A DNA stretch of 60,912 bases, filler included, from Stramenopiles sp. TOSAG23-6 (Eukaryota), in NCBI GenBank assembly GCA_900128565.1. It is 11 parts of 11 records of this genome, joined end to end, with 100 filler letters (N's around TTAATTAATTAA, not from the genome) between each part and the next. Parts side by side here need not be neighbours in the genome. Positions count along the whole stretch, not along the records: positions 38,913 to 44,347 come from LT636908.1; positions 44,448 to 49,876 come from LT636909.1; positions 49,977 to 55,401 come from LT636910.1; positions 55,502 to 60,912 come from LT636911.1; 7 more parts are not named here. One strand, given 5' to 3'. Below, one piece after another: positions 5,105 through 58,380 of this stretch. Positions within the stretch are counted from its first letter, which is position 1. Every line of letters starts with the position of its first letter. Under the pieces are notes generated by a model. The model was not told the origin of the DNA. It made no database searches and was given only the letters and a program-made list of their open reading frames with translations. The translations under genes and the position numbers were made by a program.

Positions 5105-5207
5105 GTATGTATGTTTTATTTTTTTTTTAACAAAAAAATCGAATTTTTTTTTTATAAAAATTTTGTACCTAACAAATTTTTTTTTCAAATATTTTTCCAA
5201 AATACAG

Positions 5208-10993: not shown

Positions 10994-11140
10994 ATTAAAA
11001 AAATATATTTTTTTGTAAAATTTGTTAGGTACAAAATTTCNNNNNNNNNNNNNNNNNNNNNNNNNNNNNNNNNNNNNNNNNNNNTTAATTAATTAANNNN
11101 NNNNNNNNNNNNNNNNNNNNNNNNNNNNNNNNNNNNNNNN

Positions 11141-33490: not shown

Positions 33491-35285
33491 TTATTGTTGC
33501 TTCGCTGGAAAAATAGTGCTGATATACATTCTTCATTATCAGGCCCATTACTTTCCTCTATTGGACCACTTCTCTCATTAGGCGCCAACTTGGAGAATGA
33601 TAATGAAATAGTTCAAAATATCTGTGATTGTACTACTTGTTATTTACGCTGTGCTCCTTTATCTATTGCGAATTTTGTCGGACCAGACGGGAAATTTGGC
33701 GCAGTCCATGTATGTTTTATTTTTTTTGAAATTCGTTTTTTTTTCGTACGAAATGTTGTACCTAACAAATTTTAGTTTTTTTTTTTTTAATATTTTTTCA
33801 TAATCCATATTCTGGCTTTATTGAAACGAATGCTCTCCGTACGAAACGATGGTAAATCGTTGTTCTCAGATGTAGCATTGTGTGATATTGGTATATGCAT
33901 TACACAAACAATTAGATGTTTTGGCACTGGTGGGTCTAAATATAATGTCGATCAAATATACGTTTTCATTTCAATTTCGAATTTATTTTGTTTTTTTCAT
34001 ACGAAATTTTGTACCTAACAAAAAAAATCAAAAAAAAAAATATTTTTTCACAATATATTCTTTCATCGGATCAGTTACGTGATTTACTTTTTGCTGTTTT
34101 GCAGAGACTGGTCATTGGTAAGTATGTATGTTTTATTTTTTTTTTAACAAAAAAATCGAAGTTTTTTTTTTTATAAAAATTTTGTACCTAACAAAATTTT
34201 TAGAATTTTTTTTGAAATATTTTTACAAAATACATCCCGCCATAAGAGAGTCTCTTGTAATCGTATTTGCCCAACTTATTCATTCTCATGGAGTTGAAGT
34301 CTTTATGAACGTGATAAATAGTATGCAAGCTCCTCGTCTAGATGTTGCTGCAACTGCACGATATAGTGAGGTATCAGGGGATACTCCGAGTGCTCTTGTG
34401 TGTATCCTACGAGAATTAATTGAGCATTGCCCAGTCATTCATTTGGAATTTGATAAAAAAATAGTTCTTCTTGCTCTTGCTAAAATATTGGCCTCAGGTG
34501 ATGTTCGATGTAGAGAAATTTCTGTACCAGGTGATGCTCCTAGTCTCAAAGGTCGTACTAGAGCTGCTGCTGCTGCTGCAAAACTACGAGGCGAAAATGA
34601 AGTCGCAAATTTAGTTCCTTTTATTATCAGAGCATATGTGTGTTTTTATTTTTTTTTTTTTCCGGTAAAAAAAAATCGATTTTTTTTTTTTTGAAAATTT
34701 GGTACCTAACGTTTTTTTTCAAATATTTTTCCAAAATTTATGCTCTTCTCATCCGAGGATTAGTAGCTGCAAAAGCTGCTGCTGCTCTATCTACCCTAGA
34801 TGAAGATGAAGACGAGTGGGAGTTTGAAGATTCAGACGGCGAACCTTTCTCCGATGATGAATATGATGAGGAGGAAGACATTAGTGATAACGTATGTTTT
34901 TGTTTTTTTTTTTTAGTAAATAATTTTTTTTTTTTTGAAAATTTTGTACCTAACAATTTTTTTTTTTAAGAAAATTTCAAAATATTTTTCCAAAATACAT
35001 GACGATAGTAATGGGATGTTTGGAAATATTATGCTTTCGGAACTCCTGGAGATGGGACATCAGTCGGCAGATTCTTTAAATGTATCGAATCATAGAAATG
35101 TTTATGAGAGAGATGAAAAAAAATATTTAAGTGAAATTGACCCATTAAACGATGTATCACTTATTGAACAACTCGGTTTGTTCTTTCAAGCGTCAATTCA
35201 AAGTGGTTCACCGATGAAGGAATGTATTAATTATATTAGTCGTGCTGATCAAGAAGCTTTGAAGCGTTGCGAAATTCTTCATTGA
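33491..35285 (+). CDS. IPO9: Importin-9, C-terminal part (introns 33710-33808, 33958-34058, 34126-34235, 34638-34741, 34892-35000)
   Basis: LRDLLFAVLQRL..AIRESLVIVFAQLIH..KIVLLALAKIL..GRTRA, acidic loop, DPLNDVSL. The frame is restored by removing five introns that all end in AT. Confidence 0.82.
33958..34058 (+). mobile_element. Repeat-family intron with AT-AT ends
   Basis: CAA AT|ATACGTTTTC...GTACCTAAC...CAATATAT|T CTT gives DQILSSDQLRDLL. Confidence 0.75.
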
Positions 35286-38971: not shown

Positions 38972-39845
38972 GCGGATCTGCAGATCTTACTCCATCCAAT
39001 ATTACAATGAACGAACATTGGGGTGGTGATTTTCAAAAATCAACTCCAAATGGTCGTTATATTCGATTTGGTGTACGTGAACATGCGATGGCAGCTGTTT
39101 GTAATGGCATGTATGTTTTTTTTTTTTTTTTTTACCGAAAAAAACAAATCGAATTTTTTTTTTTGGTTTCGTACGAAATTTTGTACCTAACAAATTTGAG
39201 TTTTTTTTTTTGAAATATTTTTCCAAAATACATGTATGCTTTTGGTGGAATTGTACCAGCATGTGCTACATTTCTCAATTTTATTGAATATGCTTATGGA
39301 GCAGTGAGGCTCTCAGCATTGAGTAAAATGTATGTTTTATTTTTTTTTTTTTTTGTATGAATTTATTTTTTTTATAGTACATTTTGTACCTAACGATTTT
39401 TTTTTATAGAAAATTTTGAAATATTTTTTTTTCGTACGAAATTTTGTACCTAACAAACAATTTTAGATTTTTTTTTGAAATATTTTTCCAAAATACATGC
39501 GTGTCTTATATATTATGACACATGACTCCATTGGTCTTGGTGAGGATGGTCCAACCCATCAACCTGTGGAAGCATTGACAATGTGTCGTGCTACTCCAAA
39601 TTTATTGGTTTTTCGACCTGCTGATGGTAATGAAGTTGCAGGATCCTATTTACAAGCTCTTTCATCTGTGAATTCACAAACACCTTCCGTATTGGCTCTC
39701 TCCCGGCAAGGGACTCCAATTCTTCCTGGATCATCAGCTTCATCTGTTGCTTATGGAGCCTATATCATTGATAAAGAAGAACCAAACACAGATGGATCTG
39801 CACCTGCATTAACATTTGTTGCATCAGGAACTGAAGTTGCTTTAT
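38972..39845 (+). CDS. TKT: Transketolase, internal exons (GT-AT introns 39111-39233 and 39330-39498)
   Basis: [47 protein letters not shown] and [18 protein letters not shown]. Confidence 0.97.
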
Positions 39846-39978
39846 GTATGTTTTATTTTTTTTTAAATTTTTTTTTTCTGTAAAAATAATGTTTTTTTTT
39901 CGTACGAAATTTTGTACCTAACAATTTTTTTTTTTTTTTTGGTAAAAACATTTTTTGAAATATTTTTCCAAAATACAT

Positions 39979-42143
39979 CTGGACAGCATCCACAGCTAGG
40001 GATCTTGTAGATGGCTTCAAACATTTTTGGGACGGCTCCAAGCTTTTATTTGCTGATATAAAAGTTGGTACGAAATTAGTTGGTCGTGTAACACAAGGAC
40101 ATTCTCTTACTCGTCGAGAACGCAGACAGTTAATACGCACAGTCAATGACGTCATGTTAATGGTTCCTGTATGTTTTATTTTTTTTTTGTTTTCGAAAAA
40201 AAAAAAAAAAAAAAATCAAATTTTTTTTTCGTACGAAATTTTGTACCTAACACATTTTTTTAGATTTTTTTGAAATATTTTTCCAAAATACATGTGTCTG
40301 TGTTTTTCTTAGTGCCATTTCTTGAATTTTTACTGCCCGTTGCCATCAAACTTTTTCCCGGGATGTTGCCGTCTACTTTCACTACTGAGTTGAAGCGACA
40401 GGAAAATATGAAGAAACAATTGTCTGCACGTGTCGCACTGGCAGGGTTTTTACAGGAAGCAACGACAACGTATGTTTTATTTATTTTTTTAACCGAAAAA
40501 AAAAAAATCGATTTTTTTTTCGTACGAAATTTTGTACCTAACAATTTTTTTATAATTTTTTTTGAAATATTTTTCCAAAATACACAATGGCAAATGATAT
40601 CAAGAAGAAAAAGTCTGGCGAACTTGCAGCTACGGCGTCTGATTTACTAGGTATTATTGAAAGTGCGCGTAATGGGGAACCAATGAGTAATGATTCTTTA
40701 CTAACCATGACACAAATGTATGTTTCAATTTGTTTCAAATTTTTTTTACATTTTTTTTTTTTTTTTATTAATTTTTTTTTTCATAGTAAATTTCGTACCT
40801 AACAATTTAAAAAAAATATATATATTTTTCACAATACATGTTTAAAGACGAAATTACATTGGGATCAATGCAACGTTCTCAATTATCTGCTTTATGTCAG
40901 TATATGGGTCTAAAATCGTATGGTACAGACGCTGTTTTGCGTGTTCGACTACGATCTGCCTTACGAACGATCAAGCACGATGATCGTCTGATTATGTATG
41001 TTTTATTTTTTTTTTTTCCGGTAAAAAAAAAATCGATTTTTTTTTTTTTGGTTTCGTACGTAATTTTGTACCTAACAAATTTTCAAAATTTTTTTTGAAA
41101 TATTTTTTCAAAATACATGTATGAAGGAATTGATTCTATGAATAAGGATGAATTACAACAAGCTTGTGCTGAACGTGGAATGCGTTCTACAGGTCTAACA
41201 AAATGGGGTTATAAAAGAATTTTACACGATTGGTTGGATTTATCAATTACACATAAAGTTCCAACATCAATGCTTATCCTTTCAAGGGCGTTAAATATTA
41301 CTGCCAAAACTGAGCGAATGGAAGCTATAGCTCAATCTCTTGCGGGCATGGATGATGAAGTTGTTAAAGAAGCTGTCCTGGAAGCAGCTGTGGACAATTC
41401 ACCTTCTTTAAAGCTTGATACACTACGTATACAACAAGAATTGATTGAAGAAGAACGTGAGCAGGCTGAATTCATTGAAGAAAAGAAAAGAGAAGCAGAA
41501 GAGGCGGAATTAATTAAAGAAAAGCAAATGGAGACTTTAGAAGCCGATGTTTCTGTTATGACTCCTGATGAATCTCTACAAGACATATCAATATCAGAAA
41601 AAGATACATCTATTAGTCTTGAAACTATTATTGACAGAGAACGAAGTAAAGTTGTGAAAGAATCACGAAAAGAAATTGATGATGCGATCCAAAGAGATAA
41701 AATTAGAGATGCAAAGGAGGCTTTAACTATTGATCCATCGGAGATATTAGTTGATCCAGCAGCGGCGACAGTACTCGATGATAAGTCAAACACTGTAGAC
41801 AATAGAAATAACAATGATAAAGATGATGAGGAAGAAAAAGCATTGGATAAACTCAAGGCATGTTTTATTTTTTTTTTTCAATTTTTTGTCAATTTTTTTT
41901 TTCATAGTAAATTTTGTACCTAACGATTTTTTTTATTTTTTTTACGAAAAAAAAAAAAAATATTAATTCACAATACATGCATCTGATTTAGAAGTATTGA
42001 ATTTATTAATGTCCGATTCTGCGATGGATGCAGAGAGAGGTCGAGTTGCTGAAATGCTACTTCAACAAGAAAAACTTGAAAGGGAAAGAGTTGAAGATGA
42101 AGAAGAAGAATTGCAGGAACTTGCGAATGTCTTGGAAGAACAT
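39979..42143 (+). CDS. LETM1: LETM1/MDM38 mitochondrial inner-membrane protein, partial (introns 40169-40293, 40470-40585, 40718-40839, 40996-41118, 41858-41978)
   Basis: KHFWDGSKLL..LTRRERRQLIRT..VP|VSVFFLVPFLEFLLPVAIKLFPGMLPSTF, DDRLI|MYEG and ELQQACAERGMRS. Confidence 0.95.
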
Positions 42144-42293
42144 GTATGTTTTATTTATTTTTTTTTCGTAAAAAAAAAATTGAATTTTTTTTTTTTTTTT
42201 TTTTTTTTCGTAAAAAAAAAAAAAAATTTTTGTACCTAACAATTTTTTTTTTTTTTGGTAAAAAAAATTTTGAAATATTTTTTCATAATTCAT

Positions 42294-43718
42294 TAATATT
42301 GGAGGTACAGCTTCTGCAGGCAAAGGAGGTTCGTTTTTTTTTAATACGTTTGATGAGAGATTTATGCTCAAAACAATTAGTTTAAAAGAATTGAAAGTTT
42401 TAGAAGAATTAATTGAAAATTATCCTCAACCAAAACTGAAAAATAATAATAATACCCGATTTGCTTATATAAGAAGACAATATCAAAATGATCCCAAAAA
42501 TAATCAAAATATAGATTCGAACCGCGATGATTGGACACTTTCTTATACAGATTATGTATGTAAACATCGACATGTAGGTTTTATTTATTCAATGTATTAA
42601 TTTATTTCAATTTTTTATCCATTTTTTATCCATTTCAAAAATGTTTTTTTTNGTTTTTTTTNCATTTTTTTTTTTGAAATTTCAAACCTAACAAAAAAAA
42701 AATAAAAAAANANAAATAAATAAATACAATACATGAATCGTTATTGATGAAAATTGTNGGTTGTATCACATTAACAATGAAAGAATATGGCCATCATAAA
42801 CAACATTTCTTAATCTGTTCAAATATTTTCCCTCCAACGTGTATGTTTTTTTTTTTTTTCAAATTTTTTACCTAAATATTTTTTTCATAGGAAATTTTGT
42901 ACCTAACAATTTTTTTTTTTTTTTTTACGGAAAAATTTTTTTTTGAAATATTTTTCCAAAATACATCTGTTGAATATGTTGATGAAAAATATGACTTAAA
43001 AGGTTCAGTCATAAATCGTGGATCAAAACAACCAGCCGTTGGAACGAGACAGGTTTGTAAGCATTGTCATAGAGGTTTTACTGTTGTAGATGTACGTTTT
43101 TTTTTTTTTCAATATCNTATTCCAAATAGTACGAAATTTTCATACAAAAAAAAAAAAAATATTTTGTATTTTTTTTTCAATACCACAAAATTTTCATACA
43201 AAAATTTTTTTATTTTTTTTATTTTTTTTATTTTTTATTTTTTTTGAATTTTTTGAATTTTTTTTTTCACAACACATGTCAATCCAATTGAATTATATAA
43301 AAAGCATGTCGCCACTCGATTAGAAAAGTTAGCATCATGTATGTTTTATTGTTTTGAAAATTTGAAATTTTGGAAATTTGAAATTTTTTTTTTCGTACGA
43401 AATTTTGAAAATTTGAAAAGTTTTTTTTCGTACGAAATTTTGTACCTAACGTTTTTTTTAGATTATTTTTTTAAATATTTTTCCAAAAATACAGTAGACG
43501 ATTGGAATGAAAATTCAAGAAAATCAATTACCTTACATTTAAGTGAAGAAGATCAAATTATTTCTACTGANAACCCTATCCCTAACCACTATCTTTATAA
43601 TAATAATAATAATAATAATTCAATTGATGTGGATATTGAAAGCAACAATAGTAGACATCATAACAGAAACATTTCAATAGATACGAAATATTGTATCCAC
43701 AATGAAAATAATACTACA

Positions 43719-43749
<31 letters not shown>

Positions 43750-44250
43750 CAAAAGACAAAAATTCATGTCTGTTTTATTTTTTTTTTTAAATTTGAAATT
43801 GAATTTTTTTTTTTTTTTTGTTTTTATAAAAATTTTGTACCTAACCCTAAATTTTAGTTTTTTTTGAAATATTTTTCTAAAATAAATGTCAGACTTTGTT
43901 CCATAGAATATTTTGTGGATTTTGTGGAATATTTCAAAAAAAAAAAAAAACATTTTTTTAAAAATTCTGTAGTATCAAGAGAAAGAGCATTATCAGCTTC
44001 AAATGTATATTGTTCCGCTGGTTCAAGATATCATGAACCGAGTACGTGTAACCCTAACCCTAATTTTCAATTTTATGTTTCATACGAAATTTCGTACCTA
44101 ACTAAAAAAAAAAAAAAAAATTAATGAAAATTAACGAAAATTAATTTTTTTTTGAAATATTGTTTCACAATATTTTGGTACTTTTGAAAGATAATGACTT
44201 AAAAAATCGAATTATACTTAGTAAAAAATCTGTTACTCATTTAAGGAGAA
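42294..44250 (+). CDS. Phosphatidylinositol-phosphate kinase (PIP5K family), multi-exon, partial
   Basis: SAGKGGSFFFNTFDERFMLKTI, SLLMKI, SNIFP, EKYDLKGS and TLKDNDL. Confidence 0.85.
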
Positions 44251-44447
44251 TATATGTTTTATTTTTTTCAATGTTTTGTCAACATTTTTTTTTTTTTTTT
44301 TTTTTGGTAAAAAAATTTTGTACCTAACAATTTTTTTTAGATTTTTTNNNNNNNNNNNNNNNNNNNNNNNNNNNNNNNNNNNNNNNNNNNNTTAATTAAT
44401 TAANNNNNNNNNNNNNNNNNNNNNNNNNNNNNNNNNNNNNNNNNNNN

Positions 44448-44679
44448 CTTAGAAGTATTGAAATGGTTAAGAAGTCAAAATCCACCTTGTCCATGGAATG
44501 AACTGACGTGTAGTGAAGCAGCTAAATATGGTCACTTGGAAGTATTACAATGGGTAACAAGTCAAAATCCACCTTGTCTGTGGGATGAAGGCACATGTAT
44601 TATTGCAGATGCAAAAGGTCACTTGGAAGTATTACAATGGTTAAAAGAAGTAAAAGCACCAGGATATCAAAATTATTAG
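44448..44679 (+). CDS. Ankyrin-like repeat protein, C-terminus (5'-partial)
   Basis: Repeated LEVLKWLRSQNPPCPW..AAKYGHLEVLQW. Confidence 0.75.
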
Positions 44680-45078
44680 TATTTCAAACTCCATTGGGTT
44701 CAAAGAGTATATTATATATATGATATACAACCGAATTAGCTAATAATAAAATCATGGTAATATATTTAAAATTTAAATGTATGATATATATAATTGTAAT
44801 AAAACTATAATCTATGATCTTCTCAGACGTATTTGAGTAATATAATTTACTATATAATTGTAATATTTTATAGATATGTACAAAACTGTCACATTTATGC
44901 TCTCCCTTTTTATTTTTCAGAATATGATGGCCTTCTTTTTTTTTGCAAGTTCGATTAGAGATGCATTTGAGATTGATGATTTCAGTTCGATTGAGTTGTT
45001 AGTTAAATAATTTCAAATTTCGAAATTGGTATTTTTATTATCAAATCTTAAAAATGAATAAATGAATGAGATTCTCAA

Positions 45079-47630
45079 TCATTTCATACCTCTCATTTTT
45101 TCTTTTTCATCTTCTTGTTCTTCTTTTATTTTAATTGATTCCCAATCGACCGAGACTTTCTTATTATATTTTTGAAAATTCGAATCTGTTTCTTTCTTTT
45201 GCCGTGTATTGTAAAAAAATATTGTAGAAAAAAAATTGTTAGATACGAAATTTCGTACGAAAAAAAAACAATTTAAAATTCATCATGAAATACGTACGTT
45301 GTTCCAAGTAATTTTGTCGGTATCCTACAACTGTATCTACATGTGTTTGATTCTTAGTAGCTAATTTTAGTGCTCTTTTCCATCGAAACAATCGAATATT
45401 TAATTTAATTGCTCTATATATCATGGGTGGGGATGCTTGCAGCAAAATATTTTCGGCTTCATCAATGGCACCCCGATACACAGCTAATTCGGCATTTCTT
45501 CTTTCTTCAACTGGTATACCTTTCATATACAAAACAAATTGTAGTTTTGCCATTTCGGAAACTTTTGCAAGAGCTATTTCAGCAGTGCTAAGATGTCTAC
45601 CCCACAATGCCATTGAAGCTAGTGCAGCCCAAAGTTCCTTCCTTTTCACAAATCTACACAATGTATTGTGAAAATATTTTTTTTGTAACAAAATTTGTTA
45701 GGTACAAATTTTCGTACGAAAACAAAATTTAATTTGAAATTTAATTTTGAAAACGTACATCGAACAGCTTCATTCCACTGCTGCTTTACAATAAATGCAT
45801 ATAATAATGGTGGATACGGTGATACTGAAGCAGTAACAATGGATCCATCAGATTTTCTTACTGTAACCCGGGAACCAAAGTTTGAAACAATAAAAGGATG
45901 TTTACCAAAGCTTGCCGCATCACTGACAATTTTTGTTTGTTCAAGTAAGTCTTTATCCACATAAACGCTATGTGGATAAACCCATGTAACAAGTTTACCA
46001 TCTGTACAAGCAGAGAGCATGAATTGTAAAAAAATATTTATTTTTTGTAAAATTTGTTAGGTACAAAATTTTCATAGTAAAAAAAACAAATTTTGAAAAA
46101 AAAAACATACATGTCAGAAGAATCATTCCATTCTGATGTATCGCACATGGTGACAAGCTTTACTGGTTTTTGTCCCAGTTTTACGACATAAAGATCACGA
46201 TTTGAATCTACAAAAGAGATCATTGGATCTCTAGACTTTGTAAATTGACTCAAATCTAATTCTTGGATATCACGTGAATGCACTATAGGTTTACCTCTAG
46301 GTTGTCCTGTGTGTACATCAAACACTATGAAACTTTTACGCATCGACGAATTGAGAATTGCTATTTTGTCTGCACTGAGGGATATAGCACGCTCATTCAG
46401 CATTTCTGCGCGCAATCCTTTAAATCTAGGATTAGACAAAACACGACCTTCATAATTATATACTTGAATGCCAGCAATAGCATTCACCATTACGAACAAA
46501 CAATCACTTTGAATAATCATTGTTGGAGGATGTCTTAAATCAAATATATGCGGCGTGTTATAGTTATCCACAGAGTAAATATGACATTGAGAAGATGTAG
46601 TCACAATTAAATGACCAAATGCAATAGACATGTCAATCACACGGCTACGGAAATCAATTTTTTCACTGTTTTCAGTCATGCAATTCATTACTTCTATTCG
46701 ATTTGCATCGGTTAGAGTCACTTCAATGTTTTTCCATTCCAAACGTCGATTGACCAAAGTACTAATAATAACACTCCCAACGCCACCGGCACCAGCACAG
46801 CTTGTACCATCATCAGTCCACGCCAAGCGTAAAAGTGAACCACTCTGAAGTCGAGATCTTGAATAAGACCAACCTGTTTGATCACAGAGCCGAAGTAAGT
46901 TATATGATCCAACAGAAAAACATTCACCAGTTGGAGACCAGGCGATAGAAGTAATGACATAGTCAAATGGGGCACTCGAGTACAAAAGACGCCCATATGA
47001 ATCCCACACTTTATATTTACAGTCTTCACCACATGAAATAATCTTACCATTCACTGGATTCCAGTCTGCTTCAGTGACAATACCATCGTGCGCTTTCCAT
47101 TGAAGATGTTTCCGATCAATCTTTGTTGTTTTTATTAACAAATCCCGACCCTGGGTAAATAAAAGTTGATCATCATTAGGTGCCCATCGTACACTATATA
47201 TTGGATGTTTTGATTTCATGATTGTGGCTCTTAACTGTCCCGTGCGGGAAAAAGTTTTCACTGCTCCATCCTCACCACCAGTTACAATTACATTTCCTTG
47301 AAAACTCCAACGAACGCAAATGACAGCACCACGATGAGCTTCAATTTTTTTTTCTATACGACCAGATTTATGTATCAGACAAAACGAACCATCTGTACAC
47401 CCGGAAACGAACATATCTGCTACCATATTATGTGTTGTAGGCTGCCAATGAAGACTTGTTACATAAGTGTTAAATGTAACTAAAGTTGGTTTGAGGAGTT
47501 CTCCACTGGTTGACCACAGGCTGATTGTTTTATCATCTGATGCTGCAATTACTTCATTATTTGGAGTAAATTCAACTGCTGATACAACTTCGTCGTGATG
47601 CCGCTGTACTTTTGCAATATCAAGTCGCAT
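45079..47630 (-). CDS. IFT80: Intraflagellar transport protein 80, complete, 4 exons (introns 46019-46110 GT-AT, 45661-45758 GT-AT, 45204-45297 GT-AC)
   Basis: WD40 repeats WKAHDGIV..WNPVN..SCGEDCKYKVWDSYGRLLYSS, RLCDQTGWSYS; spliced EAVR|LCRFVK and YLEQ|RQKKETD..VDWESIK. Confidence 0.96.
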
Positions 47631-47933
47631 TTTACTTTTGCTAATTGTCCAGAAAGATAAAAACCGTAGTATAATTATCTACTTTGTCGGTTGAAAACCA
47701 AATCTTTTTTGGAACCGTTATAACTTATAACGTCCTTTTTGAAACGAACACGAAATCTCAAAATCTCAAAAACAAAAAACCGTTACAAAATATATGACAT
47801 CTTCCTTTTTTGATCGTCCAGAATGTTTACACACGGCTTTTTACTTTAACAAGATTCAATATTATTATATTATTATATTTTTCTGTACAACAAAGTAAAT
47901 AAATATAAACGAATATATACAAAAAAATATAAA

Positions 47934-49115
47934 ATGTCACATGCTGTTCGTACAGCAAAACCAAAGTTAAGAAATAGAAAAAAGAATATAGGCATTCCTG
48001 GAAGCCCTATCGGCCCAGGTCTAATTGACGACAATGGGATATATTCAAGTATGCGTAGCTTACTCTCTCAAGCTTTCGATGATTTTGACACAGACAAAAA
48101 TGGATATATAGATGCCGAAGAACTCGAAAACCTCTGTAAAATGTTAGGCTCTAGACTATCAAAACAGCAAGTAGAAGAATTACTTCAGGAATTAGATACT
48201 AATAGAAGTGGTTCCGTCGATAAAACCGAGTTTATTGCGTGGTGGTTGAATAAAAAAAACGAAGCTAGAAGGAAGTTACGAGCAGAAAAACTTGGTACAA
48301 AGCCAGGCAAAAATAGATCTCAAATGTACAGTACACATCTACTACCGCAACTCCCCGGAGCAGCCCCGGTACGATTATTGGATGCGAGACGCAATCGAAA
48401 GTTGACAGACCGAGATACTGAAATGTTAAGAAATCGTGTAAAACTTTTAAAAGTAGAAGAACTCAAAACATTAAAGCGTATATCAGATGCAAACTACCAA
48501 GCTGCTAAAATATTTAAGAGGAAACAAACACAGACAAATAAAATGATGCGGCGAGTGGAAAACGCGAGAACAGAACTAAAGAGAAATAGGACAGCACAGG
48601 AGCAAAACTATGTATGTTTTATTTTTTTCAATTTTTTATCTAATTTTGTTTTCGTACTAAATTTTGTACCTAACGATTTTTTTTTGAAATATTTTTTCAC
48701 AATATATGTCAAAAAAGAACTTGCCAGAATTTCTAAATTGAAAGCAGCTCGAGCAGTGGTAGCACGAAAGAATGCAGCTGCTCAACATATAAAAAATGAA
48801 AGAAAAAGATTGAACAACATTAAAAAACAAGAAAATGATCAATTGAGATCAAAGAGATCTAAAAGAAAAAAACAAATTTTGTCGATCCGTCAAAAAGTCT
48901 TTGAAGAAAAGTTGAAACGAGAAGACGAAAGAGCCGAACAAGCTGAACTTGTCTATTTATCGAGAGTAATGCACGAACAACAATTACAGAGGGAAAAGGA
49001 ACAGACTCTTCGTGAATTAGAAAAAAGAGAAGCTGAATTAATTGGTAGATTACAAAATGCACACTTAATGCAAGAAGAAGCTTTACATAGTCTAGGTCGT
49101 GTCTTGACACAATAA
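47934..49115 (+). CDS. EF-hand pair and coiled-coil protein (in-frame 96-nt GT-AT intron 48612-48707)
   Basis: DTDKNGYIDAEE and DTNRSGSVDKTE. The intron reads through as VCFIFF..FVPN..KYFF. Confidence 0.8.
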   Translation: MSHAVRTAKPKLRNRKKNIGIPGSPIGPGLIDDNGIYSSMRSLLSQAFDDFDTDKNGYIDAEELENLCKMLGSRLSKQQVEELLQELDTNRSGSVDKTEFIAWWLNKKNEARRKLRAEKLGTKPGKNRSQMYSTHLLPQLPGAAPVRLLDARRNRKLTDRDTEMLRNRVKLLKVEELKTLKRISDANYQAAKIFKRKQTQTNKMMRRVENARTELKRNRTAQEQNYVCFIFFNFLSNFVFVLNFVPNDFFLKYFFTIYVKKELARISKLKAARAVVARKNAAAQHIKNERKRLNNIKKQENDQLRSKRSKRKKQILSIRQKVFEEKLKREDERAEQAELVYLSRVMHEQQLQREKEQTLRELEKREAELIGRLQNAHLMQEEALHSLGRVLTQ

Positions 49116-49233
49116 AATTTCAAAGTGGGAAGGAACAATAACTTTCTCTTGCTTTGTAAATTATACGTATAAATATTTATAACAACTTTTAATTAGTTTA
49201 TTTTCTATAAGACGTTTCGTTGATATCAGTGTT

Positions 49234-49876
49234 TCATTTTGTAATATTCCTCGGAGGTGGAGGATGTGCCCGATGAATGGTTTTTTTTTGAGGAGGATGG
49301 GCATTATAATGCGCCTTTTGAGGAGGAGGACGAGGAGTATAATGTTTTGTTTTACGTGATGGAGGTCGTCTTTGATGAAATTTAGGTATATCCAGTTTCG
49401 ATTTTTGTGGTGGTGTTGGCTTGAGCTTGAGAGGCGACTGTTTTGAAACTTTTCTGGGCTTCTTTTCAACGTCTCCTTCTTTCGCAATTATTATTTCTTC
49501 TTGTTCTTTTTTTACACGTTCGAGCTCTGCTTTTGCTTGGTATTCCTCGTGCTCGGCCTCAACCATTGATCGCTCTAGATTTATACGTTCGACTTCGAAT
49601 TTTGCATCTTCTTCACGGCGTACGCTTTCGGCATACTTCTTATTTGCTTCCTGTTCCTTGCTTATGGCATCAGCTTTAACTCTCTCCAATCGCAATTGCT
49701 CTTTTTCCACTAAGGCTTCTTCTTCTCGGAATGTTTGTTGTTTTAGGCGTAATTTTTCAGCTTCATCGTTTTGTTCTTCTTCAAGGCGTAATCTTTCAGC
49801 CTCATCTTGTTGTTTTTGTTCAAGATGTAATCTTTCAGCATCATCTTGTTGTTCTTCTTCAAGACTTTCAGCTTCA
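49234..49876 (-). CDS. Coiled-coil and Pro-rich protein, C-terminus (5'-partial)
   Basis: EAERLRLEEEQ repeats followed by a PPPQK tail. Confidence 0.6.
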
Positions 49877-50011
49877 NNNNNNNNNNNNNNNNNNNNNNNN
49901 NNNNNNNNNNNNNNNNNNNNTTAATTAATTAANNNNNNNNNNNNNNNNNNNNNNNNNNNNNNNNNNNNNNNNNNNNAAATTTTGTACCTAACATTTTTTT
50001 TTTTTTTTAAA

Positions 50012-52063
50012 TATTTTAACTCTGCCCTACAGTTCTCGATTCGTACACCTGAATTAATGTACACATACTTTGAAGATAATTATCTTGATGCTCCAGACAC
50101 GTTGGGGCCGTTTGACCACGAACAGTTTGGAAAATATTTGCAATCATTGAAACCTATTGTCAACTATCTAATTAAAGGTGCTCCGCCAATGACTGATCAA
50201 AGTCTACTTGCTGTATCTTCGCGAACCTTCATCCGAGGCAGAGAACAAGATGCGGATGAAGCTTTTCAATTTTTCACACAAAATAATCTTAAAGATCGGG
50301 GTTATTTGGTTAATTTTGAGAATTCTCAAACTGGTTCGAAGTTTTCGAAGGAGGACGCTGATCTCGAAGCACGTTTGGAAATTCAAGAAAAGGCACTTCA
50401 GAGGCAAGCCTCAATTACGACTATAAAACATTTGAAAATGAAAGTAACACTAGTTCGTGACATCGAATTACAAGGTAATGAAACATGCGATTCTTTAACA
50501 AAAGACTTAACTCATCAACTGAATATAAATAAACCTGACGAAAATGCAAACGTAATAATTGGGATATACTTGGAGCGATTATCATTTAAAAAAACTAGTG
50601 TAAACAATATTTTTGATTTTCAAGTGATATCATCTAGACAACTACAATCGGAGGAGGATCAGGAGGATCAGGAGGATGATCAGGAGGAGAAGAAGGATCA
50701 GGAGGAGAAGAATGATCAGGAGAATGATCAGGAGAATGATCAGGAGGAGAAGAAGGAGGAGAAGAAGGAGGAACTACAATTGACTAGATGTAGGGTTAAG
50801 TTTGAGTATGAATTAAGAAAAGGGGGAGATGCAGCGAGTATTGATCTTTCTCCAAATTTTAAAGTTCAACTTCAAGAAAAAAAAACCCTTCCAAATGGAA
50901 AAAAGAATACACTTCCTGAATTGATTTCTCGGAGATGTAAAGGGGAAGGTGAACTTGAGGGAGAAAGTTGGGAATGGGATCCCTATAAAGATGTATTCAG
51001 GGGAGGAAATCAAGATAAAAACCAGGTTAAATCGACTAATAATTTCCCGAAGATGAAAAAAAATGCTGACAAAGTGGAACAGCCTGGTGATTTCTTCATT
51101 GAACTTGATGGACATTGTGAGTTTGGTGAAAATGGAATAGTGCTTATGGTCAGTCGGGAAATTGAGGACCCAAAACAAACCCCTCAAAACGCACTCCCAT
51201 TGATTAAACTTACAGATGACATTGATGACTTGACGGAAAAAATTACGATAAATTGGAAGGAATATGAGATTTCTTCATTTATAAAACATCTTGGGGATGG
51301 TAAGGGTGGGCATTACGTTGCATTTCAAGCATGTTATGAACCTATTGATGGTCCATGTACAGATGATGAGTATGCAACACTATACAATGATAATCATACA
51401 CCTGAACTCTTAACAAAAAAACGATTTTTGGAAGAAGCAAAAAAAGCAAGAGTTCTCTTTTTGAGACCAAAAAAGCGTAAAGATGCGGTGATTAGCTTGC
51501 ACAATCAAGCTAGTTCCAGAAGCAGCGGTAGAACGTTCAAAGGACGAAAGGCTATATATCGTATCTTTGATGAAGTTGTCATATTGCAAGCTTATTTTGA
51601 AAAACATCTTCAACATATTGCTGCAGGTAATCGTGATGTCAACAAGGTTGACAAAAAAGGACGTACACTATTGTATGATGCTTCAAAGAAAGGTTTTGTG
51701 GGAGTAGTTAAACAACTTATCACTGCTGGTGCTGATGTCAATCAGACTGATAATGCCCCATTGTATATTGCTTCATATAAAGGTTATGCAGGAGTAGTCA
51801 AACTACTTATTGATGCTGGAGCTGATGTCAATAAGGCTTTTCAAAATGGAGTTACACCATTGTATGCTGCTTCACATCAAGGTCATGATAAAGTAGTTGA
51901 AGAACTTCTCAAAACAAAGGGAATTGATGTCAATCATCCCAAAAAAAACGGAGTTACGCTATTGCAAAAAGCTTTGAAAGTTGCACAACAGAAAGGTCAT
52001 GTTAGAGTAGTTGAATTACTAAACGCGTATGCTGCTAATGACAATAAGGCTAATGATGACTGA
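50012..52063 (+). CDS. Ubiquitin-specific protease (C19) fused to C-terminal ankyrin repeats (5'-partial)
   Basis: YFNSALQ (end of Cys box), EQDADEAF, HLGDGKGGHYVAF (His box), YNDN, then TPLYAASHQGH ankyrin repeats. Confidence 0.8.
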   Translation, partial: YFNSALQFSIRTPELMYTYFEDNYLDAPDTLGPFDHEQFGKYLQSLKPIVNYLIKGAPPMTDQSLLAVSSRTFIRGREQDADEAFQFFTQNNLKDRGYLVNFENSQTGSKFSKEDADLEARLEIQEKALQRQASITTIKHLKMKVTLVRDIELQGNETCDSLTKDLTHQLNINKPDENANVIIGIYLERLSFKKTSVNNIFDFQVISSRQLQSEEDQEDQEDDQEEKKDQEEKNDQENDQENDQEEKKEEKKEELQLTRCRVKFEYELRKGGDAASIDLSPNFKVQLQEKKTLPNGKKNTLPELISRRCKGEGELEGESWEWDPYKDVFRGGNQDKNQVKSTNNFPKMKKNADKVEQPGDFFIELDGHCEFGENGIVLMVSREIEDPKQTPQNALPLIKLTDDIDDLTEKITINWKEYEISSFIKHLGDGKGGHYVAFQACYEPIDGPCTDDEYATLYNDNHTPELLTKKRFLEEAKKARVLFLRPKKRKDAVISLHNQASSRSSGRTFKGRKAIYRIFDEVVILQAYFEKHLQHIAAGNRDVNKVDKKGRTLLYDASKKGFVGVVKQLITAGADVNQTDNAPLYIASYKGYAGVVKLLIDAGADVNKAFQNGVTPLYAASHQGHDKVVEELLKTKGIDVNHPKKNGVTLLQKALKVAQQKGHVRVVELLNAYAANDNKANDD

Positions 52064-52487
52064 TAAACCCCATTGCAAGTTGCTCAATCTCACAAAGGAA
52101 AAGTTTTAAACCAGCAATACAAGAATGTAATATAGCTGTTACCACGCGCAGTATCAGACAAAACAGGACTCCAAGTGAGATTTGAAGCAATTCAAACGGT
52201 ATAGTATTTTTATTGAGGATAATAATCATGTGATTGCAAGATATGGCAAGTAAAACAATCACCACAAGTAATAACATTATGAACTTGGATATACACATTT
52301 GTATATAATAAAATTATTCATATATCAAAATTATTTTGTTTCTTGTTTTAGTGTATAATAAACTTTGATTACACTGTTATAAAAAAAAATTAAAAATATA
52401 TTTATAATAATTACATTTACTTGATTATAATAAACACATTAAAAATATATTTATATTAATTACATTTACTTGATTGAACCCTATATA

Positions 52488-55307
52488 TTAATTACATTTA
52501 CTTGATTGTACAATACAAACTTTACCTTGTTTTGTTCCATATACAAAACCCATGCCTGGTTTTGGATGAAAAAGAGCAATATTTATATCATCATTGACTT
52601 TTTTAATAGTATTAATAAATTTCATATCTGATGTTCTTACAATAGATGCAATTTTACGATTTTCATTACCCGGTACACCACCATCATTACGTCGTTCATT
52701 ACTTCTTTTTTGATATCCTACAATAATAAAATGACCTGTTGGTGAAAATTTCACGGATGTTATTTCTTTTGCATTTTTAGGTGATACTTTAACTGAAGTA
52801 TATTGTGAAAAAATATTTAAAAAAAAAAAAAAATGTTAGGTACAAAATTTCATACAAAAAAAAAAAGTTTGAAATTGGTAAAAACTATGATATGAAAAAA
52901 AAAATGATGGTATAGGGTTAGGGTTAAAAACGTATATAATTTCACGTCTTTCTTCTCCATTCAATGAAATGACGGCTATACAATATTTTCTTTCACAACA
53001 TTGATTTCTTTCGCTAAATTCTTGAGATTCTGTAGTTTCTGTTGAACATGTTTGTGCCACATTATTATTTATTGTATTCTTTGAAATTTTTATACCAGAA
53101 ATATTTGGACTTTTCCTTTTTTTAGGTAATTTTATTTTTATTTTTGTTTGTTTTTTTTGATTATTATATTTGTATTCTTGTTGATTACGAATAGGGTTAC
53201 TATCAAAATGTATTGTAGGTATATTATCATTTTGATTTCGTTTTTTTCGTTTTGGCCATGACATGGATTTTCGTATATTTCGTGTTTTTTCAAAGTCTAT
53301 TGAAGAAAATTTAATTTTATTATGAAAATGTCTACAAAAATATTCAGAAAATATATTTGCATTATTTACACATTTTGGTATAGAATAATAAAAATTATTT
53401 ACTGTACGTTGATTTGGATTATATACTATATTACAAATTGGAAATTGGATTTTTGGTTTCACCATTCGAAATGGTGTTGGACTAATACTACTACTTTCAT
53501 ATTTCGTGTTTTCATGATTTTTTTTTTTTTCCCCAAAACGTTCCAAAGACAATTTTTTTTTTATTTGTTGTTTTGATTTTTTTTGTTGTTTTGTTTTTTT
53601 TTGTTGTTTTGTTTTTTCAGTAGTTGGTGTTGTCACTTTATATTCAGACAAACCTGTTTCTGTTTCATTATAATGGGGTATATAAGCATGAATAGTGAAA
53701 CGTCCATTTTTAAAAAGATGTGGTTTTTCACCATATAATTTGAAATGCAATTGATATTGAATACTCAATAACATTTCATTATTTATATTGACTTGTTTTG
53801 CAGTTGGAACAAAATTGGCAAAAGCAAATGATTCATCATACAAACAGTTTCGTTCCATTTGAACTTGATTACGTAACAAATTATTATACGAAAAAAACCA
53901 ATCCTCAATAGCTTCATTTGTCTTATTCACGTCAATACAAGCAACAAGTATTGTGAAAAAATATTTCAAAAAAAAAAAATTAAATTTGTTAGGCACGAAA
54001 TTTCGTATGAAAAATTAAAATTTCAAAAAAAAAAAATTAAATTTGTTAGGTACGAAATTTCGTATGAAAAATTAAAATTTCAAAATAAATAAATAAATTA
54101 GACATTCATATAAAACATACAATACAGCTTTCAGAAGGATGAATACCAAAGCCACCATCATTATAGAGTAGAGCATGATCAACAATAACTTGTTTATTTG
54201 ACAACACAAATTGATTTGTAATGTCATTATTACAATATTTCGTGTTTTTTACATGTTTTGTATTTTCACAACGTTTGGATTTTGGAATTTCAATTTCTGT
54301 TTCCAAATCATTCATAGTAATACCTATAGATTGTAAAGCATATATTTTGGAAAAATATTTCAAAAAAAAAATCTAAAAAAAATCGTTAGGTACAAAATTT
54401 TTATAAAAAAATAAATTGAAAAAATATTTCAAAAAAAAATCTAAAAACATTTGTTAGGTACAAAATTTCGTACGAAACCAAAAAAAAAAAATCGTTTTTT
54501 TTTTGGTTTAAAAAAAAAATAAAATAAAACATACATGCCATCGACGTATCCGTGAATTATCATAATTAAATGAATAAAATCCAAAACGAGCTTTACATTG
54601 TGGACATTCTAAAACACCTGACGATTTTGGAATTTCAAGAATTGCTGAACATTTCATTCCACTTCCAATTTTGTTTTCAAAAGTATGTAAAGGTGGATAG
54701 TTTATTTTTTTTTCAAATTCATTATTACATTCATTTGGTTCATTTGGTTCATTTAGTGTATTATCAAAATGTCTATTTGAATTATTATTTGAGTTCTTAT
54801 TTAAAGTATTATTTGAGTTATTATTTGAGTTATTATTTGAGTTCTTAGGAGTATATTCCCAAATTTCACCTTTACATTTTACAAAATTTGTAGCTGTATA
54901 ATCTTTACTAATTAATCTATGTAATACATTTGAATAAGGAACTGGAGACACTTCAGATCGAATGACTGGTAATTCTATTGGAACATTTAATTGATTTTGT
55001 TTTTCTAAATGTAATTTTGTGAGAAATGCATCGATTGAAAAATCATATAGTGTAAAGTATATATCAAATTTAATATTTGTTTAGATTGTATTGTATATTT
55101 TTTTTTTTTTTTTTCAAATTTCAAAATTTTTTTTTTTTTTTAAATTTCAAAATTTTTTTTTTTTTAATTTTAAATGTCTAATGAAAACGTATATATTTCG
55201 TGAGTTGTACTGTATTATTCGGTACCGGGTCTCCCGTTACAGGTAATGTTGTTTCACCTACAATCAAAAACTGTCCAGATGGTGGAAATTCAACACATCG
55301 AAATGCA
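52488..55307 (-). CDS. AMBRA1: AMBRA1-like split WD40 protein, multi-exon, 5'-partial
   Basis: FRCVEFPPSG, LLYNDGGFGIHPSESCI|VACID, ITSVKFSPTGHFIIVGY and DINIALFHPKPGMGFVYGTKQGKV. Confidence 0.7.
53946..54120 (-). mobile_element. Repeat-family intron with apparent GT-TT ends (TT duplication) and a doubled core
   Basis: TGT ATT|GTATGTTTT...CACAATAC TT|GTT GCT TGT, in frame (SCIVAC). Confidence 0.65.
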
Positions 55308-55583
55308 TATAGTATGAAAAAATATTTCAAAAAAAAAATTTAAAGTTTGTTAGGTACAAAATTTTTTTACCAAAAAAAAAAAAAAAAAAAAAAAAAAAAT
55401 TNNNNNNNNNNNNNNNNNNNNNNNNNNNNNNNNNNNNNNNNNNNNTTAATTAATTAANNNNNNNNNNNNNNNNNNNNNNNNNNNNNNNNNNNNNNNNNNN
55501 NATTTCAAAAAAAAAAAACTAAAATTTGTTAGGTACAAAATTTTTATAAAAAAAAATCAAGTTTGAAAAAAAATAAAACATAC

Positions 55584-58380
55584 ATCATCATTTGAAGAAT
55601 TTTCATCCGATGGATCATTTGTATCTTGAACATTGGTGAAAGGATATTTCGTGAATGATAAATCGATTATTGATTCAAGCTTCATGTATTTTGGAAAAAT
55701 ATTTCAAAAAAAAAACTTAAATTTGTTAGGTACAAAATTACGTACGAAAAAATAAATTCGATTTTTTCGTTAAAAAAAAATAAAACATACATTGACTCGG
55801 TGGTTGATTGATTCGGCAATTGCATTTGTTCACGCCAAAGCCCGTTGAAATTCGCAAGAGATTTTTTGAGAGAGATTTTACTTATAGAGTCATTTGATGA
55901 AATAGAATTTTGGTGTAATGCGTTGACAACTTCAGTATTTAAATCTGGTCTATTTGAGACATAAATATTTTCTTGAGAATTCTTTGGTGGTAATGGTGAA
56001 AGACTGAATTGTAAAGGTAATCTTGATTGAGTCAATATTTGGGTTTGACTTTGTATAGTATTATTTATGTCGCTATTCTCATTATCATTATTTACGTTAT
56101 CATCCGAATCTGGAATCATCCAATCTGAATTTGTACTTTTCGACTTTTTTTTCTTTGATAAAGCCTCTTTTACTCCATTTGCCTTTGACTGAAAAGAAAA
56201 TTCAAGTATTATGAAAAAATATTAAAAAAAAAAAAGTAATTAGGTACGATATTTTCTACGAAAACATATTTTCAAAAAATTGAAGTGGATAACGTACAAG
56301 AATACGGGCGACACGCAAAGAATCTGCAGTTGATAGTAATGTATTTTTGGAAAATATTTTCATTTTTTTTGTTAGGTACAAAATTTAGTACGAAATATAA
56401 ATAAAATTAAAATTGATTCTGAAAACATACGTTGTTTTGGTAAACTTGAAAAATCTGAAGATACATATTTACTTATATATTGCAACCAACTAGATAGAGA
56501 AGCAAAATTTGCTCTAGTATCTGCTAAATCCACAGCGAATTCTTCAATTTTCAATGCTAATATTTCAATACTTCTAATTAATTTATCTGCGCCTTTTGGT
56601 GTCCATCCAACTTGGGTAAACCATTGTTTACAACGTGCCATGCCTCGCATTTCGCCAAGTCTGAAAACGATTACTTTTACAGGATGTTGAAGATGATTTC
56701 TTACAAGATTAGAAATATCAATACACATTTTATCAAGAGCAATTTTCATTCTTTTCAATGCACTCTCAGTGGTCAAAGTAGAGTTAGAAAAGAATTGTGT
56801 TAAAGCGTCATTTGTACCAGATGAAAGTAATGTAAACAATTCATCTTTTGAAGTCTTTGTATGTCCGTACATGTAATGTAAAAAAATATTTCAAAAACAA
56901 AAAAAAAATATTAGGTACAAAATTTCGTATGAAAAAAATTGTAATTTTTTTTTTCAAAAGTTATACAATACTTTTGTAATAAGAGTTGCATTGCTTCCAT
57001 AATGTCTTCAAGTGACTTGATGCCATCTTTCCAAATTTTTTCTATTTTTATAAGTGCAAACTCAGTGTGCTGTATCATACACGAAATATTTGTACTATGT
57101 GTCGCTAAAGCTAACAGATATATCGTGAAAACAAATGTAAAAAAAAAATGGTTAGGAACAGTTTTTTTTTTATGAAAAATTGTTAGGTACTACGGAATTT
57201 TCTATGAAAGAAAAACGTACTCGTTCTCTTTGGTTCCACAAACAACTACTATTTATCACTACAATTTTAGAGTTGTTACTTAAATCAATAATGTTATTTG
57301 AGTCAATATTAAAAAAAAAAAATTTGTTAGGTACAACATTTCGTACGAAAAAAAAATAAATTCGAAATTGAAAACAAATAAAACAAACATGTTATTTGAG
57401 TCAATGGTACTTTTTCTAAAAGAATAGCTGCTCTTATTTTGTAATTTCATGGCTGACATTGATGAACGTTCAACTTTTGAAGGTGGTCGAAGAGTAACTG
57501 TGATTGTTGTAAGATCAGCTGAAGTACAGACATCTTGAACTGCCGTGCATTGGGAAGTATTCAATAAAACACCAGATGAATCTTCAGGAATAATCGCTAA
57601 ATTAATTGTGCAACACACAAAATCACCAAATATAGATAATGCCAATGTGCCACTAGCATCACCACTAATGAGAACATCTTGTTGGCTTAAACGCTGCGTC
57701 TGTGAAGGAAGAAAGGTTTCTACAGCTGCACTCTCGAAATTAGCAAATGCTTGTGTCTTTGGTAGCGGAGGTGGCACCAGAATAAATCTAGAAGTATCGT
57801 CAAAAAATTGAACTTCATTTTCGCGTAAAACTCTTGTGTTTCCCATATTTTGATATCTTTTCGACTGTGGTAGCGGTCGTCGACGACGGAGACGCCAGTG
57901 TTCCCTTTGGACAATAGTCGAAGCTTCAGTTTTTGCTGAGGGCATTGTTGTTGGCGAAAACTTCCGTTGTTGACTTGGCCACTGCAAACATGTCACCGCA
58001 GATTTATGTTTATATGCTAATGGAGTTCGTGGTAGCGCTTCTTTTCTTTCGGTGTCGTAGAATACTAACGAACCGTCTTCTAACCCAAGAGCAAGTGTCT
58101 TTCCGTCGGGTCTCCAAGCTATTGCCGTCAAATTTGCGCTAAAAGCAGATCCTGGAATATTAAATAGATTTTGCCACGGTCGGGACCATCTAATTACACG
58201 CAACTCGTTATCTTTTGTCGTCATTGCCAATAAATCCATCTCAGGGCAACAAGAAATTAACGAGATTTCAGAAGCCATGAGCTTGTCATGGATCTCAACC
58301 ATGAGCATGGGTCCTTCGTCCTCTTCCTCAGAAGACGAACAAGCTGACGAAGAATCTTCTTTCATTTCATCATCGCTCAT
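55584..58380 (-). CDS. ANAPC4: Anaphase-promoting complex subunit 4, multi-exon, 3'-partial
   Basis: SCCPEMDLLAM..WQNLF..AIAWRPDGKTLALGLEDG (APC4 WD40) and ELFTLLSSG..LTQFF..IVFRLGEMRGMAR (APC4 long domain). Confidence 0.88.

Follow-up and report, generated by a model that had tools for sequence, protein, structure and literature searches.

Nearly all introns in a 60,912-nucleotide (nt) stretch of DNA from Stramenopiles sp. TOSAG23-6 (assembly GCA_900128565.1) are copies of a single repeat of about 100 bases. Throughout this text, "the window" refers to that whole stretch, comprising 11 joined parts and their filler. The removal of each element together with the two bases downstream of it, leaving no scar in the coding sequence, is well supported, and those two bases are most often AT. 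Our best reading, to which we assign a probability of about one half on moderate support, makes these short mobile introns members of an introner-type family that would insert at (C)AT(G) and duplicate two bases of the target. That the two downstream bases are such a duplication is plausible and statistically suggestive, although not established from 61 kb.

One repeat family fills nearly all introns

More than 45 sense-oriented copies of the family occur in the window, and a profile built from 11 clean copies yielded more than 60 nhmmer matches on both strands. The introns have a median length of 109 nt, and aligned copies share a 5′ block, GTAYGTTTT, with a yeast-like GTAYGT donor; a middle block, AAATTTTGTACCTAAC, with the branch-like box TACCTAAC; and a conserved 3′ block, ATATTTTTYCAMAATAC, that ends in ATAC and is followed by 2 nt. 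The last branch-like box lies at a median of 43 nt from the 3′ end. Each copy also carries a T-rich tract, and between the blocks stand a palindromic CGTACG box and A/T runs that vary in length. The best pairs of copies are 85-91% identical over whole introns that reside in unrelated genes, with a median pairwise identity of 73%, and copies were found in TKT, LETM1, IFT80, ANAPC4, HOOK, C2, EF-hand and PIP5K genes. Many similar introns in unrelated genes are thus present, as in introners, and the single repeated intron family proposed in an earlier note on this DNA is borne out. Moreover, 7,220 contigs of a seawater DNA run match a 3.7-kb stretch of the window, almost all of them on element segments.

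With respect to the gene, 30 copies lie on the same strand, 13 are ambiguous by a crude open reading frame (ORF) measure, and 3 lie at borders with an opposite-strand neighbour. No Rfam match was found anywhere in the window. Four introns (39330-39498, 43339-43494, 53946-54120 and 54340-54534) contain two tandem copies of the module formed by the branch box and 3′ block, and hence two branch-like boxes. Three others, in frame at core+2 (defined below), start with ATACG instead of GTACG, at 9926-10020 (-), 52798-52935 (-) and 33958-34058 (+). AC is the final pair of two of these and AT that of the third, which may hint that the first base of an intron is linked to its last, although n = 3 is too few to judge.

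Splicing two bases beyond the core

The positions of the splice sites were assessed with a frame test, in which the element was removed from the donor G to 2 nt past the position equivalent to ATAC (core+2). The curated set consisted of 38 unique introns. It excluded two probable false joins (39846 and 42144), the N-masked introns (5406, 33371, 38741, 38912, 44302, 49985 and 10950), about nine copies with ends that could not be fixed, and the second arm of a perfect palindrome of 2,834 nt; six odd introns were also excluded and then restored in a second count. The reading frame was best kept at core+2 in 33 of the 38 introns, was ambiguous in three (6549, 56341 and 56206), and had no fit in two (43768 and 28248). 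The acceptor pair was AT in 28, AC in 5, TT in 3 and AG in 2; 36 of the 38 therefore end in AT, AC or TT, and only about five further introns of the window end in AG. The family does not have the AG acceptor of canonical U2-type GT-AG introns.

Independent evidence for this placement comes from RNA and from homologous proteins. RNA contigs of two metatranscriptome runs join 39110 to 39234 (with 3 ambiguous bases) and 41857 to 41979. IFT80 spliced at core+2 encodes 755 amino acids and aligns without gaps over all three junctions to the proteins P0002 (78% identical) and P0003, and LETM1 spliced over four introns is free of stop codons and aligns to four homologues. The copies are spliced and the frame is restored, just as the earlier note had proposed for the core plus 2 nt.

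Where the two flanks are identical, the GT..AT and AT..AC readings yield the same mRNA, and it is the mismatched flanks that tell them apart. At 41858, with AG upstream and AT downstream, the RNA contig retains AG and loses AT. At 40169 (CT/AT), a retained CT gives a proline that is conserved in all four LETM1 homologues, while a retained AT gives a histidine and scores 9 lower. Because both introns keep the upstream pair, these are GT..AT rather than AT..AC introns, and it is the downstream copy that is removed.

The used acceptor is neither the first AG nor the first YAY, since in 12 of 36 introns an AG located 8-15 nt past the branch box goes unused and all have earlier YAY triplets. A parse with a 3-nt ATG unit was also tried and fails, exon 2 beginning with G in only 21 of 36 cases. 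A different cut, at the end of the core, was found in four introns (19495, 19829, 21474 and 20167), three of them with a terminal AG at the core position and the fourth with the core AC as its end. The idea that position alone sets the acceptor is not supported, since only AT, AC, TT and AG are used despite the occurrence of CT, GT, AG, GA and AA upstream.

Identity of the two flanks

All dinucleotide pairs named in the earlier note were found in place, including AT/AT in TKT, LETM1 and IFT80, the AC/AC and TT/TT pairs, and the mismatches. That the same two bases usually flank an element on both sides holds for 24 of the 38 curated introns and fails for 14, well-conserved copies among them. 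When the downstream dinucleotides were shuffled, in the "relative match" test of Gozashti et al. 2022 (PMC9860276), 18.6 identical pairs were expected (p = 0.007). The comparison with random expectation called for earlier thus gives, for the window, an excess beyond the AT preference. Identities other than AT number 4 against 0.95 expected (p = 0.006), namely AC/AC at 40470 and 45297 and TT/TT at 54120 and 56297. A strict set of 30 introns retains the signal (19 identical, 14.5 expected, p = 0.01), as does the set of 44 with the six odd introns added (26 against 19.0, p = 0.002); dropping one TT/TT pair gives p = 0.03. The signal resides in the first position of the dinucleotide (33 against 28.8, p = 0.002), with none in the second and none for a longer match at positions -3 and -4. 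Both flanks share the same minor spectrum, with AC five times and TT three times. Complementarity of the flanks in RNA was considered and rejected: the AC/AC and TT/TT repeats are direct rather than complementary, so RNA pairing is no explanation of the match.

The upstream pair is AT in 24 of 38 introns (63%), compared with 9.4% of exon dinucleotides, and it is in this favouring of AT, within a CATG-like context, that the AY insertion preference suggested earlier holds. Of the 19 tabulated AT/AT sites, 13 have a G directly following the downstream AT (25% background, p = 8e-5), and CATG occurs at 4 (2.8% background, p = 0.002). A palindromic CATG-like target fits a cut at the DNA level; a splicing preference could equally account for the G after the acceptor. 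One further intron, 57291-57388, finishes with 17 nt that exactly repeat the final 17 nt of its upstream exon, and the frame is intact once this intron is removed.

Proposed mechanism and its difficulties

The splicing part of the mechanism is shown by the analysis itself: the spliceosome cuts before the donor G and two nucleotides past ATAC, so that an intron ends in AT or, more rarely, in AC, TT or AG, and AGs upstream of the cut are ignored. For the spread of the family, we propose that new copies would insert into coding DNA with a preference for (C)AT(G) sites and that two bases of the target would be duplicated; the downstream target copy would then serve as the acceptor dinucleotide and be removed with the element, restoring the original frame. 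An acceptor would have to be A or T followed by T, C or G. As a consequence, insertions at other targets would have changed their downstream copy or never duplicated the target. It is also conceivable, if on balance unlikely, that the lineage has for the most part abandoned AG as an acceptor, with a spliceosome that reads the long 3′ block and makes its cut at a set distance of two bases past that block, any pair left there by a transposon-made duplication excised without a scar, and one introner family filling nearly every intron position. This would amount to a further independent origin of wholesale non-canonical splicing, beside those of Fritillaria, Amoebophrya and the euglenids.

Several observations weigh against mobile introns with a target duplication. 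The excess of flank identity is suggestive and rests on four pairs, one of which (56204-56297) has an ambiguous frame and, as had been noted before, an alternative in-frame CAG 15 nt downstream. Mismatched pairs make up 14 of the 38 and include three of the top four copies by score (13165, TT/AC; 40169, CT/AT; 6549, AC/AT). The choice of acceptor is limited, in that upstream CT, GT, AG, GA and AA never reappear downstream, and at 40169 a CT duplication would need to have changed to AT, because the upstream CT belongs to an anciently conserved proline codon. The inverted ends described earlier do exist as GTAT/ATAC, yet they span only 4 bp, short of a terminal inverted repeat (TIR) of 6 nt or more, and they lack covariation: none of 10 GTACG or ATACG copies has a compensating 3′ change. 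Neither consensus RNA pairing nor a terminal hairpin was predicted among the copies. The earlier proposal of a DNA transposon also finds no backing in the roughly 35 ORFs or exons of the window that were tested for a transposase domain, of which none had one, or in copy placement, as the window, with its scant intergenic DNA, showed no copy that was antisense or clearly between genes. Finally, all counts come from one 61-kb window, in an assembly whose chimeric joins fall on the repeat itself.

Among the first 13 mismatched pairs to be tested, the difference is purely synonymous in five (the fourteenth was examined for reading frame only), which suits an AY preference at the target just as well as drift of the exon copy after insertion. 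At the typical copy divergence of about 27%, neutral decay would be expected to leave half to two thirds of 2-bp duplications identical. Since this estimate is near both the 63% observed and the 49% expected without duplication, the 61-kb window alone is not decisive. Four borders between element and exon are covered by DNA contigs of run X3; among the joints listed, a minority of the total, none removes an element.

Alternative explanations

In the main rival to target duplication, the element brings an ACAT acceptor of its own (consensus end ATACAT), makes no duplication, and enters after AT or AY as a proto-splice site. Reverse splicing with reverse transcription, or microhomology, could provide the route, and the AC/AC and TT/TT pairs could then reflect chance or microhomology. 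We consider this possible but rather unlikely. It would account for a downstream AT in 28 of 38 introns whatever pair lies upstream, for mismatched flanks on well-conserved copies and an ancestral CT at 40169, for the sense orientation of all copies within genes, for a TIR no longer than 4 bp with no transposase, and for AT|G at both junctions in parallel with the AG|G of canonical introns. Against it stand the locus-specific identity of the flanks (p = 0.007, and 0.002-0.03 under other inclusion rules), the exact 17-nt direct repeat at 57291-57405, and the palindromic CATG-like target, which would be expected for a DNA-level cut. Moreover, AC and TT ends are spread over different subtypes and so were not inherited from one master copy.

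A second alternative holds that these are old, immobile introns of a compact genome, alike because their splicing signals are long and strict, with flank identity a product of the exon and acceptor consensus. The conserved columns are indeed confined to three signal blocks with A/T runs as the remainder, and identity between copies has a median of just 73% and goes no higher than 91% for any pair in the window. The likeness nevertheless extends beyond the signals to the palindromic CGTACG box and a module of A-run and T-run, some introns contain internal tandem copies of a module, parts of the element are very strongly over-represented among metagenome contigs, and the flank-identity excess is specific to the locus; immobility is accordingly improbable.

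In U12-type introns the donor is of the ATATCC type and the branch site sits much nearer the acceptor. A reading with the termini shifted by two, to AT..AC introns cut before the upstream AT and after ATAC like those of the known AT-AC class, is the weakest of the alternatives and highly improbable: AT/AT pairs give the same mRNA either way, RNA contigs show 2-3 ambiguous nucleotides, and two of the three introns that start with A (ATACG) end in AC, but the AG kept and AT dropped in the RNA contig at 41858, the CT required for the conserved proline at 40169, a GTAYGT donor that is constant while the bases before it vary, and a branch-like box some 43 nt from the 3′ end argue against both this shift and a minor-spliceosome type.

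Host and sample

The window is AT-rich (about 30% G+C), gene-dense eukaryotic DNA with very little intergenic sequence, and contains 923 N set as regular masks. Its host is judged from sequence to be a heterotrophic marine stramenopile (MAST) resembling MAST-3, because the best match of IFT80 carries a MAST3 label and the next matches are stramenopiles: the long IFT80 exon at 46041-47678 (-) has 96% identity to a protein labelled GSMAST32, followed by a relative of 78% identity from a metagenome source and by Incisomonas and oomycetes at 46-48%. A Fritillaria tunicate, considered because the intron pattern resembles that published for F. borealis, was rejected on the strength of these matches; the DNA is not that of an animal. 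Parts of the window are present in two small DNA runs and in several seawater metagenomes and metatranscriptomes. Searches for further sequence, using protein P0002 and the element pattern, returned nothing in metagenome contigs; viral contigs gave 0 matches and genome contigs only 8 bacterial ones, judged to be chance.

Comparison with known systems

Introner elements have reportedly been found in Micromonas pusilla and Aureococcus anophagefferens by Huff, Zilberman and Roy in 2016. As summarized in a passage of PMC11282704, these are short, non-autonomous repeats that form many introns, with one splice site borne by the element and the other derived from the target duplication, scarless splicing, and a strong sense-strand bias in genes, all of which resemble the family described here. 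They reportedly differ in having target-site duplications (TSDs) of at least 3 bp, clear TIRs and canonical GY-AG ends, whereas the window family has a would-be 2-bp duplication, a 4-bp TIR, and non-AG acceptors in 36 of 38 introns. Some introner families outlined in PMC9860276, such as those of Chrysochromulina sp., place the donor inside the element and take the acceptor from the TSD, as the earlier note proposed for the present family; theirs is a 4-bp TSD that yields AG, while the window family co-opts AT, AC or TT.

The closest parallel in acceptor usage is the tunicate Fritillaria borealis, most introns of which are described as lacking GT/AG, with 3′ ends in AT and AC (Soo et al. 2026, PMC13326754). 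In the relevant parts of that report and of PMC11282704, YAY before the donor and at the intron end is read as the TSD of introns derived from miniature inverted-repeat transposable elements (MITEs), and splicing is ascribed to the major spliceosome. Fritillaria belongs to another kingdom, its 5′ ends are also non-canonical (AG/AC, AG/AT), and its families are diverse (PMC13326754, PMC11282704); the window family differs in its strict GTAYGT donor, its one dominant family, and the absence of a locus-specific match at -3. In the dinoflagellate Amoebophrya, introners are portrayed as non-canonical, with border-overlapping direct repeats, and are read as MITE-like (Farhat et al. 2021, PMC7789003). 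Those elements are said there to have hairpin-forming inverted repeats of 8-20 nt and direct repeats of 3-5 nt; no terminal hairpin is predicted for the window family.

The principle is therefore known from introners and Fritillaria, and the present case differs in its lineage, its strict yeast-like donor and branch box, its single dominant family, and its 2-nt register. Literature searched on introners and splice sites in MAST held no report of such introns, although the supplementary species lists of introner surveys may bear on the matter, and MAST genome papers, when searched by term, proved to discuss neither introns nor splicing.

Should the pattern hold genome-wide, it would add another example, from a phylogenetically remote lineage, of mobile introns accompanied by a relaxed acceptor rule. 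The strict donor and branch signals would offer a clean system for studying what defines a 3′ splice site without AG. Furthermore, AT|GT...AT|G parallels AG|GT...AG|G, and the comparison could show whether matching dinucleotides arise by insertion or by recognition.

Individual introns

Introns and elements for which individual details were recorded are listed in Table 1. Homologues of the region around 53946-54120, sought to examine its TT-acceptor junction, were not found.

Table 1. Elements of the intron family in the window, with flanks given as upstream/downstream dinucleotides.
Position	Strand	Feature	Evidence
39111-39233	+	TKT intron, AT/AT, GT..AT	Frame at core+2; RNA contig X9 record 24 joins 39103-39231, 3 ambiguous nt (CAT)
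39330-39498	+	TKT intron, AT/AT, internal tandem branch/3′ module	RNA contig X9 record 26 starts at 39497, consistent
39846-39978	+	Element at probable chimeric join of TKT 5′ part and LETM1 middle	Out of frame at core+2; Pfam TKT before, LETM1 after; uncounted
40169-40293	+	LETM1 intron, CT/AT, CT kept	Junction Pro conserved in 4/4 homologues
40470-40585	+	LETM1 intron, AC/AC, GT..AC	Spliced LETM1 without stop
40718-40839	+	LETM1 intron, AT/AT	Frame, spliced LETM1
40996-41118	+	LETM1 intron, AT/AT	Frame, spliced LETM1
41858-41978	+	Intron GC..AT, flanks AG/AT, downstream AT removed	RNA contig X5 record 14: 41857 directly to 41979
42841-42966	+	Intron GT/AT, PIP5K-like gene	
43339-43494	+	Intron AT/AG (GT..AG two nt past ATAC), internal tandem duplication	
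44042-44175	+	Intron GA/TT, GTACG type	
45204-45297	-	IFT80 intron, AC/AC	Frame kept; gap-free against P0002 and P0003 over junction
45661-45758	-	IFT80 intron, AT/AT	Frame, homologue alignment
46019-46110	-	IFT80 intron, AT/AT, core end ATTC	Frame, homologue alignment
48612-48707	+	EF-hand gene intron, AT/AT, core end ATAT	
52798-52935	-	Intron AT/AC, starts ATACG (A at +1)	Frame at core+2; 359 + 102 open codons
53946-54120	-	Intron TT/TT, GT..TT	Frame kept, 84 codons
54340-54534	-	Intron AT/AT, internal tandem duplication	
55684-55790	-	Intron AT/AT	
56204-56297	-	ANAPC4 intron, TT/TT, frame ambiguous, in-frame CAG 15 nt downstream	
56339-56430	-	Intron AC/AT, difference synonymous	
56871-56971	-	Intron AA/AT	
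57118-57220	-	Intron GA/AT	
57291-57388	-	Intron with 17-nt direct repeat, copies 57389-57405 and 57291-57307	Exact repeat; frame kept, 335 + 39 open codons
9926-10020	-	Intron AT/AC, starts ATACG	Frame kept, 208 codons
34892-35000	+	Intron AC/AT, synonymous Asn codon	
13165-13273	+	Intron TT/AC, best-scoring family copy	
5105-5207	+	HOOK gene intron, AT/AG, 5′ end GTATGTATG	

Assembly, annotation and other observations

The assembly seems to join unrelated genes at the intron repeat. TKT ends after its pyrimidine-binding domain and passes out of frame, through the element at 39846-39978, into the middle of LETM1, and the tail of LETM1 passes through an element at 42144-42293 into position 11 of a PIP5K domain. 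The repeat is a place where assemblies break or are falsely joined. In addition, a perfect inverted duplication occupies 11037-16704, with arms at 11037-13870 and 13871-16704 that are 100% complementary and have no spacer. It probably reaches through masks to about 10950 and about 16791, and it doubles four introns, which were counted once. This palindrome has the look of a chimera from amplification or assembly, not of a biological feature.

Annotation that relies on GT-AG introns fails on this genome, and gene models of such genomes with the same basis are probably damaged systematically. For example, the public coding sequence P0001, 96% identical to the IFT80 gene of the window (45060-47630, -), is mis-spliced at all three introns (3/3), with a read-in of 8 residues at the first intron and deletions at the other two. 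Two long open exons, 52839-53945 (-) and 22262-25063 (+), match no Pfam family and represent orphan coding regions; for the former, no homologue was found among 1.8 billion representatives.

Lastly, telomere-like (CCCTAA)2-3 sequences occur as 21 exact matches, compared with 0.01 expected, at 15 unique sites that include 28544, 28751, 29063, 29300, 44052, 52913, 59216 and 21803-21921. In every case examined, CCCTAA lay on the sense strand of the local gene, whether within ORFs, where it would encode NPNPN, just past donors, or in 3′ flanks.

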